The notes below the pieces were generated by a model that saw nothing but the letters and a program-made list of their open reading frames with translations, was not told where the DNA came from and did no database searches. A stretch of 54,917 nucleotides of DNA from positions 1-54,917 of the IMG/VR virus record IMGVR_UViG_3300049983_000006, one strand, 5' to 3'. The stretch comes from a virus. Its lineage: Duplodnaviria > Caudoviricetes. The position numbers were made by a program, and so were the translations under genes. Shown here piece by piece: positions 29,287-40,236 of the stretch (positions within the stretch are counted from its first letter, which is position 1; each line of letters starts with the position of its first letter).

Positions 29287-29756
29287 CAGCGGGCGGGCTC
29301 CAGCCCAGCCGCAGCTCGACCCTCGTTGATCGAGCACTTGCCCTCAGCGATCAGGTCACGTACCGGCCGAGCCGGAACACCCGCCCAGACCTCTCCGGCT
29401 GGAACGTCTTTGGTGACGACCGCTCCGGCTCCTACGCGGGCGCCGGCTCCGATCGTCCGCCAGGGCAGCACCGTCGCGTTTAGCCCGATGCGGGCCTCGT
29501 CCTCGATCGTCGCGTGCCCGCCGATCACGGCGCCGGTCGCGATCTCGACCGCGGCGCCGACGACGACGTCGTGCCCGAGGTGGGCGTGCTGGAGAAGCCA
29601 GGAGTTCTCTCCGACTTCGGTCGCCCGCTCGGTGCCGGCGTCGACGCTGCAAAAGGCGCTGATGGTGGCGCTCGGATGAACGACCGGCGGGATCGGCTCC
29701 CCGTCGAAGTCCCTCGACTCGGGAGCGCCGCCGATCCGGGCGCTGTGGTGGATCAC
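29286..29756 (-). CDS. Hexapeptide-repeat (left-handed beta-helix) N-acetyltransferase
   Basis: HLGHDVVVG, IGAGARVGAGAVVTKDVP and WAGVPAR motifs; GTG at 29756 overlaps the upstream TGA. Confidence 0.9.
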   Translation of the reverse strand: MIHHSARIGGAPESRDFDGEPIPPVVHPSATISAFCSVDAGTERATEVGENSWLLQHAHLGHDVVVGAAVEIATGAVIGGHATIEDEARIGLNATVLPWRTIGAGARVGAGAVVTKDVPAGEVWAGVPARPVRDLIAEGKCSINEGRAAAGLEPAR

Positions 29757-30694
29757 TCCGGTTTCACGCATACGTTCGTCCTCCCGAATCTCTCGGCGTT
29801 GGGCAGCTCGCCGCGCCAGTAGGGGCGCATGGATGGCTGCTGGTGACAAGGGGGGTCGTAATAGGTCCGCCCCGTACCCCGGGGGTCGGCGCAGGTGACG
29901 ATGCGGTGCCAGGACGACTCTCCCCCGAAGGTCGTCCGTTGAAGCTGATGGCCGCGGGTGGCGAAGCGTTCGGCTTCCTCCTGCTGTTCCTTCACCCGGG
30001 CCGGGAGTGCTGCGAGACGGATGCGAAGGGCCGCGGCCTGCAGCTCGTCCAGCCGGTGCGTCCCGCCGATCACCTCGTGCCGGCGCCCGTCGTGAGATCC
30101 ATGATGTCGAAGGAGCCGCACCCGCTCAGCAAGGCCGCTGTCGTTCGTGGTGATTGCCCCGCCGTCGCCGACGCCGGCAAGGGTCTTCGACGGGTAGAAG
30201 CTGAATGCCGCGGCGGTGCCAAGGGTGCCGCACCTAGCGCCGAGGTAGGTCGAGCCGATCGCCTGACAGGCGTCCTCGATCACCGGCAGGCCGTAGTCGG
30301 CGAAGTCCTCCATCGGGGCCGGGTTGCCGAAGAGGTGGACGGGGACGATCGCGGCCGTCCTGCCGCTCAGGTGGGGGGCGACCGTCTCGGAGGTGATCAC
30401 CCAGGACTCAGAATCGACGTCGCAGAAGACCGGCACGCCGCCAGCGTGTACGACCGCCTCGGCGGTGGCGATGAAGGTCAGCGCCGGCAGGATCACCTCG
30501 TCACCGGGCCCGATCACCGAGCGGAGGATCAGGGCGAGGGCGTCCGTACCGCTGGAGACGCCGACGGCATGGTCGGCGCCAACGTACTCGGCCAGCTCGT
30601 GCTCGAAGGTCTCGAGGTGCGGGCCGTTCACGAAGGTGCCGCTCTCCAACACCTCCCTGAAGGCGGCGAGGATCGCGGCGTGGTCAGCACTCAC
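29753..30694 (-). CDS. DegT/DnrJ/EryC1/StrS PLP-dependent sugar aminotransferase, GnnB/WlbC/WbpE-like
   Basis: SSGTDAL, TFIATAEAV, PVHLFG, IEDACQA and FSFYPSKTLAGVGDGG (PLP Lys) motifs. Confidence 0.95.
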   Translation of the reverse strand: MSADHAAILAAFREVLESGTFVNGPHLETFEHELAEYVGADHAVGVSSGTDALALILRSVIGPGDEVILPALTFIATAEAVVHAGGVPVFCDVDSESWVITSETVAPHLSGRTAAIVPVHLFGNPAPMEDFADYGLPVIEDACQAIGSTYLGARCGTLGTAAAFSFYPSKTLAGVGDGGAITTNDSGLAERVRLLRHHGSHDGRRHEVIGGTHRLDELQAAALRIRLAALPARVKEQQEEAERFATRGHQLQRTTFGGESSWHRIVTCADPRGTGRTYYDPPCHQQPSMRPYWRGELPNAERFGRTNVCVKPE

Positions 30695-31929: not shown

Positions 31930-32424
31930 TCAGCGTCGGTCCTGAAGTTGTTCGCGTTCGGCGCGCCGCTTATCCGTCCAGTCGACATAGGTTGACGGGC
32001 CGTGCTTCTCACGAAACGGGGAGAAGTCGCGGTAGTCGGGAACGAACCCGCTGTTCTTGTGGTGGAGCACCATTTCGGCCGCGAGGCCTTCGGCGAGGTT
32101 CAGAAATCCAGGGATAGCGGGTCCGTCGAACCACTCGCCCACGAGCCGTTCCTGATAGCCGAGCATCTGGTGCAGCTCTCGCTCGAGGTCAAGGCCACCG
32201 ACCAAGACGTGCAGCAGCTCCAACGGGTAAGGACACCCGGTCTGGAGCTCGGCCATGCGTGTCGTCACGTCCTTAGCCTTGCCAATCTTGATGGGCGTCA
32301 GTCCGTCGATGCAGATCACGTAGACGAAACAGGTCGCCGTTGACTTGATCCGCCAGTAGAGAAATTGGTCAACCCCTGGATCGGGGATGACGAAGGCCGG
32401 GCGAACGGTCGAGACGCTGGCCAT
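31930..32424 (-). CDS. GIY-YIG-like T5orf172/Mug113-domain protein
   Basis: VYVI...IKIG...RMAELQTGCP...LERELH...GEWF motifs. Confidence 0.85.
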   Translation of the reverse strand: MASVSTVRPAFVIPDPGVDQFLYWRIKSTATCFVYVICIDGLTPIKIGKAKDVTTRMAELQTGCPYPLELLHVLVGGLDLERELHQMLGYQERLVGEWFDGPAIPGFLNLAEGLAAEMVLHHKNSGFVPDYRDFSPFREKHGPSTYVDWTDKRRAEREQLQDRR

Positions 32425-33475: not shown

Positions 33476-33931
33476 TCATGCTGCGGATGGGTCCTCTCCG
33501 CCCCATTTGTCAGCGCCCGCGGCCCGTACGTCATGGATCGTGATCGGCTGCGGCGGCAGCCAGCCGGTGACGTTGGCCCCGGCCACGCAGCCACACGGCA
33601 AGTCCTCCCAGACGCTCCCCGACCAGTGGCCCTTGTGCTCAGGGCATGGCTCGGTGCGAAACTCTTCTCCGGCGTAGATGAGGCGAGCGAGCAGGTTGGA
33701 CTTCACGATCGGCAGTTGAAGCTCATCCAGTGCGTCTAGGTAGTCCGTCCATCGCTGATTCTCCGAGTCCTCAGGTTCCCGCTCGATTCGCTGGGCGATG
33801 GCCTCCCGCCAGGCCCGGAAGGCGTTGCAGTACTCGCTGACCGCTCGGACCGGCTCGCCTTCGATCTCTTCCAGCCGAGCGCGCAGATGGGCGGCCTCGT
33901 CACTCACCACCTTGTGGATACGGTCCCCCAC
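33476..33931 (-). CDS. Hypothetical protein with a Cys/His cluster
   Basis: GTG overlaps the mini-RF2 TAG; PCPEHKGHW...CGC motif. Confidence 0.7.
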   Translation of the reverse strand: MGDRIHKVVSDEAAHLRARLEEIEGEPVRAVSEYCNAFRAWREAIAQRIEREPEDSENQRWTDYLDALDELQLPIVKSNLLARLIYAGEEFRTEPCPEHKGHWSGSVWEDLPCGCVAGANVTGWLPPQPITIHDVRAAGADKWGGEDPSAA

Positions 33932-34269
33932 TACCCCGCTGCCCCCAGAATCAGATCAAGCTCGCCAGCGAGGACGCGGTGGACCTCATCCGTCTCAGTC
34001 CCTAGCCGGTAGTCCTTGCAGAGCTTGTAGGGGTCGAGGATGTAGGAGCGGACCTGTCCCTCCAAATGCCAGGCCGGGCCATGATCCAGACTGACCTGCG
34101 CAAAGCAGGTATGGCGGCGGCCTTGCTCATCGAACGGGCTGACGCGGACCAGCCGATGCACTCCGGCCTCGTGCGAAAGGTCGCCATCCCACGCCTGGTA
34201 CATCTCACGAAGCATCTGCGCCCAAGCCTGCGAGTCGGTGCCACCCGCCCCAGCGGTGACCTCTACCAC
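33931..34269 (-). CDS. Miniature peptide chain release factor 2-like protein (SPF present, GGQ domain absent)
   Basis: AGAGGTDSQAWAQML.EMY.W, EAGVHRLVRVSPFD..GRRHTCFA and QVRSYILDPY...KDYRLG.ET..V..VLAGELD match three separate RF2 segments; GGAGG RBS. Confidence 0.88.
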   Translation of the reverse strand: MVEVTAGAGGTDSQAWAQMLREMYQAWDGDLSHEAGVHRLVRVSPFDEQGRRHTCFAQVSLDHGPAWHLEGQVRSYILDPYKLCKDYRLGTETDEVHRVLAGELDLILGAAG

Positions 34270-34333
34270 CCCGCCACCTCCACCCGCTCAATCGGAGGGG
34301 CTGAGGCTCGCTGGTTTTGGCTCTGGAAGTGGC

Positions 34334-36007
34334 TCAAGCTGCTGAGACCGGGATCGGCCCAAACAGCTCCGAGAAATTAAGCCGTGGGCTTCCCCAGCGA
34401 TTAATTGTTTCGGCATCGTAGAGCGGCTGGCGGCGGAAGACGGGACGCAACGGCGTCTCTCCGTCTACGGCGCGCTCGGCGACGATCGGTTCGATGATGT
34501 AGCGGCCCTGCCAGGCAAGCTCGGCGTGGACGCGCATCCCTGGCTTAATCTCCTTGAGGGCGAATCCATCGAAGAGCCGCAGCAGCGCAGCCCTAGCGGC
34601 GTCAACCCCCTTTGCATCGTTTACCTCGCCTGCAATCGACTTGCGGATCTCAACGAGCGCCTCCAGCGTTTCTACCTCGATGTCCTGGAGGACGTCAAAG
34701 GCTTCGACTTCAACGCGTTGCTCTGCGAGGCGGCTGACCTCCGCCGCCGCACCCTCCAGATCAGTGGTGAGTTCGTCTCGGAAAGAGGCCCAGTCGTCAG
34801 CGGAGATCCTGTCGTCCATATAGTCGCGGCGAACGCGAGAGAGGCGCTCTTCGGCCCGCTGCTTCTCGACTTCTGCTTGGGCATGTAGCGCTTTGACCTC
34901 ATCGAGTTTTTGCGACCGTGCCGCAGCGACCTGCTCGCGAGTCGCTTGGACGTCGAGGCCAACCTGCTCGAAGTAGGAATAGACGGCAGAGTCGATGGCG
35001 GCACGATTCACCGGAGCAACCGAACACGAGTCCGGGTGCTGATGGCGCCCGTAACAGGCATAGATTTCGTAGGGGTCGCTCTTGTCCCTCCGACTTCTGT
35101 CGTCGGTGCGCGGGACCATCGACGCGCCACAGACGCACTTGAGCATTCCTTTGCGGAAGAGATGCTTGCCCTTCGGCGGCCGTCCTCTCCCCTTCCCCGC
35201 TTTGCTCTTCGCCTTGCTGTCGAGGAGAGCGTTGACCTCGTCCCAGAGCTCGGGCGGGACAAGGGCCTGGTGAGTGCCGGGGAGCAACTCCCCGTTGTGG
35301 GGGATCATCCCCTTGTAGATCGGGTTGCGGGCTATGCGGGCGATGGTGCCCTGGTGCCATTTTGCTCCGGTGGCGGTTGGAACTCCGTCGGCTTCGAGCT
35401 GCTGGGCGATCGTTAGTTGCGGGCGTCCCGCGTGAAGCTCGCGGAAGATCCGGAGGATAGTTGGCGCCTCGCTGCTGTCGATCTCGAAGCCGTCAGCGCC
35501 GTACCGCAAGCCGAGGGGCTTCGGCCCGCCGGTCGGCTTCCCATCTCGGGTGCGCCGCTTCATCCCCTTCTGCACGGCGATCGACAAGTCGGCGGAGTAT
35601 TTCTCGGCCATCTTCGAGGCCATCCCGACCATCGCCTCGTCTTGCACGTAGGCGTCGTCGTGAACTGATCGCAGCGTCACGCCAGCGCGCCTGCACAGCG
35701 TGAAGACCTCTAGCAGGGATCGGGCCTCCTGCTTGCGCCCCGAGCCGCGAGCCAGCCGCTCGGACTTCCAGACCCACAGCTCCGCCCCACCGCGCTCATC
35801 GGCAAGCTCCTTTGCCACCCGTAACGCGGTCTCAAGTTCAGGGCCCCGGTTCCCCTTCCAGCCGGACCTGTCGTCCTCGTGATGCTCAGCGACGATCTCC
35901 CGCTCCAACTCGCTCGCCCGATTGCGGCATTCCTCTAGCTGGGTTTCGTTCGAGCCTTTCTCGTCAGGAGTCGACTTCGAGGCATAGAGGACTGCGGGGA
36001 TCCGCAT
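34334..36007 (-). CDS. int: Large serine recombinase (integrase)
   Basis: N-terminal YASKS catalytic Ser, SERLAR, recombinase domain (NPIYKG), zinc ribbon (CVCG...YAC...C) and coiled coil. Confidence 0.92.
   Translation of the reverse strand: MRIPAVLYASKSTPDEKGSNETQLEECRNRASELEREIVAEHHEDDRSGWKGNRGPELETALRVAKELADERGGAELWVWKSERLARGSGRKQEARSLLEVFTLCRRAGVTLRSVHDDAYVQDEAMVGMASKMAEKYSADLSIAVQKGMKRRTRDGKPTGGPKPLGLRYGADGFEIDSSEAPTILRIFRELHAGRPQLTIAQQLEADGVPTATGAKWHQGTIARIARNPIYKGMIPHNGELLPGTHQALVPPELWDEVNALLDSKAKSKAGKGRGRPPKGKHLFRKGMLKCVCGASMVPRTDDRSRRDKSDPYEIYACYGRHQHPDSCSVAPVNRAAIDSAVYSYFEQVGLDVQATREQVAAARSQKLDEVKALHAQAEVEKQRAEERLSRVRRDYMDDRISADDWASFRDELTTDLEGAAAEVSRLAEQRVEVEAFDVLQDIEVETLEALVEIRKSIAGEVNDAKGVDAARAALLRLFDGFALKEIKPGMRVHAELAWQGRYIIEPIVAERAVDGETPLRPVFRRQPLYDAETINRWGSPRLNFSELFGPIPVSAA
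34369..34413. other. Candidate attP site (imperfect inverted repeat centred on TT at 34390-34391)
   Basis: AATTAA-N4-TGGG-CTTC-CCCA-N4-TTAATT; an AT-rich dyad inside the 3' end of the integrase. Confidence 0.45.
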
Positions 36008-36018
36008 GGGCGGCCACC

Positions 36019-36210
36019 CTACCCCGCAGCCGCCTGCCTGTGCAGGGCCTCGAGGATCACCTGCGTATTGGAAGCGGATCTTGGGAGTTTGAGCCGCTGG
36101 CGCAGGGCCTCCAGATCGTGTCCCATCTCCGCATACTGAGAAGGCGTCAGCGTCAGCAGCACCTCCATGAGATCTGCCGCCGGCGCGCGCATTTGAGTTG
36201 CGGCCTCCAT
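36019..36210 (-). CDS. Small helical protein upstream of the integrase (possible regulator/RDF)
   Basis: ATG at 36210 by TGATG overlap with GGAGG upstream; 63 aa. Confidence 0.55.
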   Translation of the reverse strand: MEAATQMRAPAADLMEVLLTLTPSQYAEMGHDLEALRQRLKLPRSASNTQVILEALHRQAAAG

Positions 36211-36308
36211 CAACCGCCCTCCCCCTCTACGCTCAGCCGCTCGGCGAGGGACCTGGTCGTGTAGAAGGCCCGCTTCTCGGACTCGATGACGTGCACCTCG
36301 CCACTCAC
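36210..36308 (-). CDS. 32-aa ORF resembling a truncated excisionase-type HTH
   Basis: MSGEVHVIESEKRAFYTTRSLAERLSVEGEGG; coupled at both ends. Confidence 0.4.
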   Translation of the reverse strand: MSGEVHVIESEKRAFYTTRSLAERLSVEGEGG

Positions 36309-36463
36309 TCCGACCCCTCCAGTGGCTGGGGACCGAACAGCTCGCGATGAAGGCGCCGAGAGTCTTCGACCAGACCCGGGCTTTGTCGGACGCCGAATAC
36401 TTCATCCCCTGCCAGCTTGAAGCGGAGGCACCAATACCAGGCCAGAAAAAGAGGTCGGCGCAT
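36305..36463 (-). CDS. Hypothetical 52-aa protein (not in ORF track)
   Basis: MRRPLFLAWYW...PLEGSE; bounded by junction repeats. Confidence 0.5.
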   Translation of the reverse strand: MRRPLFLAWYWCLRFKLAGDEVFGVRQSPGLVEDSRRLHRELFGPQPLEGSE

Positions 36464-36688
36464 CTACCCCGACCCCTCCAGTGCTAAGCGCCAGCAGCGA
36501 GAGGTGCCACCCGAGCTTTCGGTTATGCCGCTTACGAGAAGGCCGCGAGCCTCTAGACGTAGGAGCGCGAAGAGCGCGTCACTGTCGGAGAGATGCAGAC
36601 ACGCCGCCACGAAGCCCACGGACGCCCCGCAATCCAGCGGCCCCAGGGTCCGCAGAACGTCGTCGTCACTCGTCCACGTCTCGGTCAT
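36464..36688 (-). CDS. Small wHTH-like protein
   Basis: ATG at 36688 by ATGA overlap; LLRLEARGLL...WRL pattern. Confidence 0.55.
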   Translation of the reverse strand: MTETWTSDDDVLRTLGPLDCGASVGFVAACLHLSDSDALFALLRLEARGLLVSGITESSGGTSRCWRLALEGSG

Positions 36689-37035
36689 TTCGACCCCTCC
36701 AGTGCTCGGGAATTGCTGGGTGAGGTAGCGGCTCTGTCGGTTGCCAGTTTTCGCTTGTGGGCGTTGTGCTGGACGAGGCTCGGGAACCGCAGCCAACCGT
36801 AAGGGCCGCCCAGCACGAGCATGAGCGCGAGCGCCTTCCGGGACACGTACGGCGGGATGTAGTCGCCAAAGCGAGACTGGGGGACTGCGAGCTTCTGGGC
36901 CGCTCTCCAGCGCTCAGGGATCAGCCGCCAGACGAGTTCACCGATGGCCCACCAGGCCGTGCAGAAGGCGACCAGGATGCAGGCGCCTAGCACCACCCAG
37001 CCGATACCCAAAGCAATCGGGTTGAAGGCGCTCAC
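36685..37035 (-). CDS. Membrane protein
   Basis: N-terminal TM helix; coupled to both neighbours. Confidence 0.65.
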   Translation of the reverse strand: MSAFNPIALGIGWVVLGACILVAFCTAWWAIGELVWRLIPERWRAAQKLAVPQSRFGDYIPPYVSRKALALMLVLGGPYGWLRFPSLVQHNAHKRKLATDRAATSPSNSRALEGSK

Positions 37036-39959: not shown

Positions 39960-40222
39960 TACGAGGTCTCCTTCTGCTGCTGGGTAGGGGTGGGGGCTCT
40001 CAGTTGGTCGGGCGTCGAGAGGACCGTCCAGCCTTTGCAGGACCAGAGCACGTACTTACTGGTGAAGCCGATGACGGGGCCGGGCGGCCAGAGCATGCAG
40101 GTGACTAGGTCGCCCTTTTCCCACTTGCAGTCCGGCGGCCTGCGTTCAGCGGAGGGGGCGGGAGTCGAACCCGCAGTCCCGCTTTCGCGGGGTGACGCCT
40201 TAGCAGGGCGCTGGCTAGCCAT
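39959..40222 (-). CDS. Hypothetical protein whose 5' part overlaps the tRNA
   Basis: ATG at 40222 lies in the tRNA D-loop; the frame is open to the TAA at 39959. Confidence 0.4.
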   Translation of the reverse strand: MASQRPAKASPRESGTAGSTPAPSAERRPPDCKWEKGDLVTCMLWPPGPVIGFTSKYVLWSCKGWTVLSTPDQLRAPTPTQQQKETS

Positions 40223-40236
40223 TCGCCTTCCCCTCC
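40150..40236 (-). tRNA. tRNA-Ser(GCT), long variable arm, no encoded CCA, A at position 8
   Basis: GGAGGGG/CCCCTCC acceptor with G discriminator; GGC/GCC D-stem; GCGCC-CTGCTAA-GGCGT anticodon arm; CCCGC-GAAA-GCGGG variable arm; GCGGG-TTCGACT-CCCGC T-arm. Confidence 0.85.

Follow-up and report, generated by a model that had tools for sequence, protein, structure and literature searches.

A soil-phage protein that joins the decoding segments of release factor 2 and lacks the GGQ domain

What might a phage do with a release factor that has kept the parts that recognize a stop codon and lost the part that hydrolyzes peptidyl-tRNA? This question is raised by a 112-residue open reading frame (ORF) at positions 33931-34269 of IMG/VR virus record IMGVR_UViG_3300049983_000006, the whole 54,917-nucleotide stretch of which was analyzed and is referred to below as the window. 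The product, here called mini-RF2, matches bacterial release factor 2 (RF2, or PrfB) in three separate segments, and it is best explained as a folded, selectively maintained accessory protein derived from RF2 domains 2 and 4. An earlier note on this DNA had claimed the ORF without stating its strand; it is present, and it lies on the minus strand.

Three segments of RF2 in a 112-residue protein

The three-piece match between mini-RF2 and RF2 is far beyond chance. In a phmmer search of PDB sequences, the pieces aligned in order to a Bacillus-type RF2 chain (6szs_z) with a whole-sequence E of 3.7e-20, and the sole Pfam domain in the protein is PCRF (PF03462; E = 1.3e-18, 68 bits versus a cut-off of 24). 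Among NCBIfam models, mini-RF2 scores 107.4 bits to prfB (TIGR00020, cut-off 370) and 28-33 bits to prfA, and it is considered RF2-type because the first score far exceeds the second. The peptides that the earlier note had seen as three RF2 segments, joined in order and in frame, all occur in the translation and are collinear with RF2 in the phmmer alignment. The gene is arranged as follows.

34281-34277, minus: GGAGG Shine-Dalgarno-like motif, read from the sequence, with a 7-nt spacer to the mini-RF2 GTG
34269..33931, minus: mini-RF2 ORF, 112 aa; GTG start at 34269-34267, TAG stop at 33933-33931
34186..34266, minus: segment 1, residues 2-28; strand β1, GAGG-T-D helix tip and helix α5; corresponds to RF2 125-151
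34093..34185, minus: segment 2, residues 29-59; EAGVHRLVRVSPFD...RRHTCF, forming β4, the SPF loop and β5; corresponds to RF2 185-215
34132-34140, minus: SPF loop, mini-RF2 residues 44-46, inside segment 2
34060..34092, minus: linker SLDHGPAWHLE, residues 60-70 (about 11), replacing about 100 residues of domain 3 (GGQ)
33943..34059, minus: segment 3, residues 71-109; domain 4, QVRSYILDPY...VLAGELD; corresponds to RF2 316-354

Segments 1 and 2 meet at W-D-G-D, which stands in place of a domain-2 β-hairpin of about 33 residues and leaves RF2-model positions 143-176 unoccupied. The domain 3 gap leaves positions ~209-308 of the model unoccupied as well, and domain 1, which in RF2 contacts RF3 and L11, has zero occupancy, the ORF beginning 6 residues before GAGG. 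Alignment to RF2 and model occupancy agree on the loss of domain 1, part of domain 2 and all of domain 3 that had been proposed earlier, and the joins match the short linkers then described (DGD and DHGPAWHLE). There is no GGQ tripeptide in mini-RF2, and the RF-1 domain (PF00472) finds no match in the protein or anywhere in the window. Judged from its sequence, mini-RF2 would be unable to hydrolyze peptidyl-tRNA by the known mechanism.

At the level of the gene, the GGAGG that had been taken for its own ribosome-binding site is present 7 nt from the GTG. A longer N-terminus is impossible because an in-frame TGA lies at 34290-34288, 7 codons 5′ of this start; an apparent extension of the PCRF similarity 5′ through the TGA (34189-34344) showed no convincing similarity once translated and was set aside. 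The GC content by codon position (0.74/0.43/0.76) is coding-typical and like that of other genes in this 64.6% GC window, and the encoded protein is acidic, with an isoelectric point (pI) of 5.2. Contigs from the soil sample (two runs on one sample, one of them marked as the possible source, hence not independent) cover 33819-36703 intact, with 0 differences and no joints. Loose contig ends at 34128-34165 come from mismatched 151-nt contigs, which are probably prfB of other organisms.

The earlier note had also proposed a structure prediction as a check, and this gave a confident fold that matches the RF2 domain 2/4 superdomain. Specifically, AlphaFold2 with a 26-row family alignment returned a mean predicted local distance difference test score (pLDDT) of 87 and a predicted template-modeling score (pTM) of 0.79, the low-confidence part of the model being the 11-residue linker alone (block pLDDT 61). 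When the model was compared with the PDB by Foldseek, RF2 chains ranked first, both free and ribosome-bound, with template-modeling (TM) scores of 0.71-0.78 normalized to the query. Against BFVD, the sole notable match was a 164-aa 'PrfB' from an uncultured Caudovirales phage (E = 0.034).

In RF2, the SPF loop, the tip of helix α5 and the His and Thr of β5 read the three stop-codon bases. Within the mini-RF2 footprint, 31 of 48 near-invariant RF2 columns (at least 95% in 102 full-length RF2s) keep their residue in at least 90% of 13 close members, a count in which ~5 of the 48 columns are linker residues that the aligner matched to GGQ and switch-loop columns. The residues kept comprise the GAGG tip with the acidic residue that follows it, E-GVHRLVR-x-SPFD, RRHT-F, R-S-Y, P80 and G102. 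G7, A8, G9 and G10 are invariant, D/E12 is present in 12/12 close relatives having that region, and the conserved residues of segment 3 are R74, Y76, P80 and G102.

Relatives without a GGQ domain and other reduced release factors

A word-indexed protein search recovered 14 homologs of 96-165 aa (56-82% identity) with both internal deletions, together with a second set of 144-188 aa in which the domain-2 hairpin is kept and domains 1 and 3 are absent. Within this unnamed GGQ-less family, members of the both-deletion subtype span about 96-191 aa and retain the helix tip, SPF, RRHT and RSY, and mini-RF2 has all of these features. Full-length RF2s plateau at ~94 bits (35-45% identity), versus 109-193 bits among the close minis; because of this difference the mini-RF2 group is, as far as sequence comparison can tell, an old clade of its own as opposed to a recently detached piece of prfB.

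The close family was then turned into a profile and compared with 1.84 billion representatives (clusters at the 50% level), giving 5869 matches at E <= 1e-3 and 16 at E <= 1e-30; the library carries no genome context, and these clusters may be viral only in part. The best 150 matches and the window protein were classed by their occupancy of a hidden Markov model built from 80 full-length RF2s. Both deletions were found in 14 (13 clusters plus the window protein) and a domain 3 deletion only in 51, the remainder being 2 that lack domain 3 and have domain 1, 80 of full type and 4 ambiguous. The last RF2-model position before the domain 3 gap falls at 207-216 (mode 209), and the first position after it at 303-310 in the both-deletion subtype and 295-311 in the hairpin-containing subtype. 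Homologs with the same deletion endpoints, which the earlier note had suggested looking for, were therefore found, as 14 close homologs and 13 clusters. The shared endpoints, the conserved decoding motifs and the confident fold matching RF2 domains 2/4 bear out its view of an ordered minimization as opposed to random decay.

Motif retention can be followed through the same classes. In the both-deletion subtype, SPF is present in 13/14, the acidic helix-tip residue in 13/14, the His in 12/14 and the Thr in 13/14, and the corresponding figures for the hairpin-containing subtype are 35/51 (with SPH in 6 and SPY in 5), 49/51 for E/D, 40/51 and 45/51. The latter subtype was located on five IMG/VR contigs (40-57% GC) and one metagenome contig. 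By the close-family alignment, both deletions occurred in none of the best 80 of 594 metagenome stretches and the best 80 of 598 genome stretches, which were swamped by cellular prfB, and a junction-specific degenerate DNA pattern matched 0 stretches in viral contigs. The close-relative clusters are all small, with 1-2 member sequences each. Database labels on members read 'protein subunit release factor B' or 'PCRF domain-containing protein', and no family-specific model exists in PHROG, NCBIfam or PADLOC.

Three IMG/VR contigs, each from a different metagenome record (L003, L004 and L005), show 100% identity across 8.6 kb around their mini-RF gene, and one relative (P0006) is extended at its C-terminus by DUF433 (PF04255), perhaps through fusion with a neighbor gene. 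One hit (H1, or L191; MT836116.1 9227-15736, labeled 'Bacteriophage sp.') was rejected as an ordinary full-length prfB beside a PBP1A-like gene, and MT836116.1 looks like bacterial DNA.

With respect to origin, 27 minis and 102 full-length RF2s were placed in one tree (129 rows, 95 shared columns; P0006, P0007, P0010, P0017, P0020 and P0022 left out), in which the hairpin-containing P0019/L002 mini falls on a short branch among alphaproteobacterial RF2s and the both-deletion subtype lies apart from it. A single clade of all 27 minis was not rejected by the approximately unbiased (AU) test (p = 0.60). Loss of the hairpin would represent a further minimization in one clade, and the family may have multiple origins.

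To our knowledge, all described reduced members of the bacterial release-factor (RF) superfamily, namely ArfB, ICT1, mtRF-R and PrfH, keep the GGQ domain. RF2 itself shares a homologous decoding superdomain with mini-RF2 (helix-α5 tip, β4-SPF-β5 and domain-4 strands) and differs in having domain 1, the domain-2 hairpin and domain 3 (GGQ), all of which are absent from mini-RF2. In the account of Baranov et al. (2006), PrfH (RFH) is an RF2 paralog without domain 1 in which GGQ is retained and the 'anticodon' motif altered, and whose gene is always found next to RtcB. It thus resembles mini-RF2 in lacking domain 1, whereas mini-RF2 lacks GGQ, keeps SPF, gives no TIGR03072 match and has no RtcB (PF01139) in its window. 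ArfB/YaeJ, ICT1 and mtRF-R (C12orf65) have kept the GGQ domain and lost the decoding domains (Burroughs and Aravind 2019, PMC6514570); these minimized, A-site-acting members of the superfamily are the mirror image of mini-RF2, in which decoding is kept and GGQ lost. The standalone GGQ domain and basic C-terminal tail that characterize ArfB and ICT1 are likewise not seen in mini-RF2, which has no PF00472 match and is acidic.

The closest functional analogy is offered by Dom34/Pelota and the inactive baeRF-1, paralogs that lack the catalytic glutamine and are believed to sit in the A site with no peptide release (Burroughs and Aravind 2019, PMC6514570). These proteins are cellular and have the unrelated eRF1 fold, and Dom34 has lost stop-codon reading whereas the mini-RF2 family appears to keep it. 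The survey in question, in the portions on which we draw, follows the hydrolase domain, does not cover phages and places inactive paralogs on the eRF1 side only. Full RF1 or RF2 genes have been described in recoded or huge phages (Lak, crAss-like, Jade and Agate; Borges et al. 2021 preprint; Al-Shayeb et al. 2020), and Lak phage RF2 genes are among the homology matches of mini-RF2. These too are phage-borne class-I homologs thought to manipulate termination, although they are complete, presumably catalytic and accompanied by stop-codon reassignment, whereas the mini-RF2 phage reads under translation table 11 with long ORFs. A full-text literature search returned no description of a GGQ-less bacterial-type RF, and supplementary lists of phage RFs could include short forms.

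The phage genome around the gene

The window derives from a soil phage that is listed in IMG/VR as a provirus (54.9 kb, estimated 53% complete), with nearly all genes on the minus strand. Phage hallmarks include an HK97-type capsid, a large terminase and a large serine recombinase. An actinobacterial host is likely because the nearest cultured relatives of the capsid are those of Arthrobacter and Gordonia phages (~41% identity), and the carrier is probably a temperate siphovirus-like phage of such a host. Three further features bear on the setting of mini-RF2.

34334..36007, minus: large serine recombinase (integrase) with Pfam Resolvase, Recombinase and Zn_ribbon_recom domains, directly upstream of mini-RF2
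33476..33931, minus: downstream 151-aa ORF whose GTG overlaps the mini-RF2 stop; no GGQ, no family match
40149-40236: tRNA-Ser(GCT), the sole tRNA of the window, 6 kb from mini-RF2

The integrase and mini-RF2 are separated by 64 nt on the same strand, with no terminator-like site between them. Despite the provirus label, the integrase occupies the middle of the record, between the structural genes and the early genes; temperate actinophage genomes as packaged are organized in this way, whereas an integrated prophage would have its integrase at one end. The five viral records with the hairpin-containing subtype, one of them a complete 78-kb genome, encode no integrase of the serine or the tyrosine type, and for this reason the family is not considered tied to lysogeny.

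On the other side of the gene, the mini-RF2 TAG and the downstream GTG overlap by one G (TAGTG). The overlap on which the earlier note had based translational coupling is thus real, whereas the pairing itself is not conserved by a crude test, in which 0/49 homologs of the 151-aa ORF have a longest contig of the same length as that of any of 17 close minis. Across the window and four other loci, the mini gene alone is shared and the neighbors are unrelated, and since nothing else is common to these 5 loci the gene appears to move as a single cassette. A search for GGQ-domain (PF00472) genes came up empty both in the window and in five further viral records, of which one is 100% and another 92% complete; two sub-threshold PF00472 matches both fall inside mini genes. 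PADLOC gave 0 matches for 5 proteins, including mini-RF2 and its two downstream neighbors, no hibernation-factor or rescue gene was seen among 10 flanking ORFs scanned beside mini genes, and the Atlas comparison produced no lead (best score 0.77).

Several side observations concern the surroundings of the mini genes. A tRNA-Thr lies 56 nt downstream of the mini gene in L002 (4618-4693), and in L027 (3278-3513) tRNA-Gly, -Thr and -Lys lie 2.5 kb downstream. The accessory region of the present phage includes a DegT/DnrJ/EryC1-type aminotransferase gene (29753-30694, minus; E = 3.5e-83), and the third gene downstream of mini-RF2 (31930-32424, minus) specifies a MUG113/T5orf172-domain protein.

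Possible roles of a decoding-only RF2

Because the parts for UGA/UAA recognition are kept and the part for hydrolysis is lost, we tentatively favor the reading that mini-RF2 binds stop codons in the A site without catalysis, in competition with RF2. Such a protein would bind the A site at UGA or UAA without hydrolyzing peptidyl-tRNA and would naturally antagonize RF2-dependent termination by competition, or modulate it, the resulting delay perhaps tipping the balance to readthrough, frameshifting or stalling. Motifs and predicted fold are our grounds for inferring that it would bind ribosomes, that it would be codon-specific and that host or phage would be affected. To judge from the titles of PDB entries, catalytically dead RFs (RF1 GAQ, GGS and GGD mutants; RF2 Q253P) remain bound to termination complexes, and RFs in a compact, 'pre-accommodated' form are seen in the A site ahead of domain 3 docking.

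In terms of stop codons, none of the five mini-RF genes with known DNA ends in TGA, the three high-GC genes using TAG and the two low-GC genes TAA; the earlier remark that the window gene ends in TAG, which RF2 does not read, is correct and extends in this sense to non-TGA stops in 5/5. Stop usage also differs between modules of the window, with TGA 7, TAA 7 and TAG 5 among 19 genes of the structural block (3543-27542) and TGA 29, TAG 8 and TAA 2 among 39 genes of the rest (27600-54917; Fisher p = 0.009), a post hoc comparison on ORFs picked by the analyst. The TAA preference of highly expressed genes would also explain this difference.

A number of observations weigh against A-site competition with RF2. 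The carrier phages do not avoid TGA, which ends 42/98 ORFs in G003, 11/45 in G001 and 40/67 in the window, near the trinucleotide background in all three; because TGA is used this freely, a strong block of RF2 would hurt the phage's own genes. A scan for readthrough targets detected no coding-like extension beyond chance same-frame neighbors, and the candidate coupling partner is, as described above, not conserved by the crude test. A-site affinity may also be low without domain 3 and the switch loop, and the switch-loop Trp is kept in just 3/14 both-deletion and 16/51 hairpin-containing members. A minority of members have SPH, SPY or other tripeptides (SQI) for SPF. Four close relatives were called from an internal Met and hence are without the helix tip. 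Finally, the gene can evidently be disrupted, to go by two relatives: P0010 is near-identical to mini-RF2 and is without 22 residues of domain 4, and P0017, found on 20 contigs (the longest 103 kb), matches at 90% identity across residues 9-50 and from residue ~50 on is unrelated, with a breakpoint equivalent to window ~34117. The P0017 tail has no match in any frame of the window, and the protein could reflect an attachment junction, a mosaic or decay. A phage attachment site (attP) inside the mini-RF2 gene, which P0017 had suggested, is unsupported, as the soil-sample contigs cross the gene intact and show no junction.

Even so, A-site competition with RF2 is the reading we prefer for the window protein. 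It is possible, and we hold this broader idea with less assurance, that phages of several lineages, differing in GC range, encode a natural 'anti-release factor', that is, a decoding-only RF2 that would occupy UGA/UAA codons without release. A factor of this kind would provide a codon-specific handle for timed shut-off, for control of readthrough or frameshifting, or for jamming RF2-dependent rescue.

The alternative that fares best, although we consider it unlikely, is an off-ribosome decoy or sponge, in which the RF2 decoding superdomain would titrate a factor that recognizes this surface. Its target might be a rescue adaptor that recruits RF2 (ArfA/BrfA-like), an enzyme that modifies RF2, or a component of host defense or a toxin. 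A small, acidic, standalone protein would be suited to such a task, and PDB matches include, by their titles, RF2 bound by ArfA/BrfA via this very superdomain. The movement of the gene as a single cassette among unrelated phage neighborhoods is also often seen for counter-defense genes, and the continued use of TGA by carrier phages fits a protein that does not block termination. Set against this, conservation is strongest at residues that face mRNA and rRNA in RF2, which a protein-protein decoy need not keep, no PADLOC model matches mini-RF2 or its two downstream neighbors, and the proposed target is a hypothetical one.

Less probable again is a codon-independent A-site occupant, comparable to Dom34 and other aeRF1 paralogs that are catalytically inactive; in infected cells it would park ribosomes, shield them or prevent their rescue. 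The fold and motifs do point to the A site, inactive RF paralogs have been proposed to halt translation under stress (Burroughs and Aravind 2019, PMC6514570), and the motif drift of a minority (SPH, SPY, SQI; His replaced) suggests that strict UGA/UAA reading is not required in every case. Most members nevertheless carry the full RF2-type reading set, and the 10 flanking ORFs scanned held no hibernation-factor or rescue gene.

We regard it as improbable that mini-RF2 is a non-functional remnant of a captured prfB that is drifting to loss. The disrupted P0010 and P0017, the four relatives called from an internal Met and the clusters of 1-2 sequences each are what such drift would leave. Yet open frames and shared endpoints persist down to 56% identity, 13 + 53 GGQ-less clusters (50% level) occur among the best 150 matches, RF2-invariant residues are selectively retained in a confidently predicted compact fold, and the gene has a ribosome-binding site and coding-type GC at third codon positions.

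The two remaining explanations relate to the flanking genes. Mini-RF2 is very improbably one half of a split release factor with hydrolysis supplied in trans by another protein of phage or host origin: its stop codon overlaps the start of the 151-aa ORF, which suggests co-expression, but the 151-aa protein has no GGQ or family match, the pairing is not conserved by the crude test, and no PF00472/GGQ gene turned up in the window (53% complete) or the five other viral records. Least credible of all is an integrase accessory protein, for instance a recombination directionality factor, made from an RF2 fragment, since the nearby same-strand serine integrase with no intervening terminator and the P0017 breakpoint as a possible attachment junction are outweighed by the five related-subtype records without serine or tyrosine integrase (the complete 78-kb genome included), by the soil-sample contigs that span the gene with no junction, and by the retention of decoding motifs, which this idea leaves unexplained.

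If competition for the A site is correct, mini-RF2 would be the first natural stop-codon-specific, non-hydrolyzing A-site ligand in bacteria, resembling the dominant-negative GGQ mutants of the laboratory. A minimal module of ~110 aa would also allow stop-codon recognition to be studied apart from catalysis, and it might serve to control termination at particular codons or to suppress nonsense mutations. Should the protein serve instead as a decoy, it would point to an unknown host factor that recognizes the RF2 decoding domain. Acting at the ribosome as proposed, mini-RF2 and its relatives would represent a new route by which phages manipulate translation.

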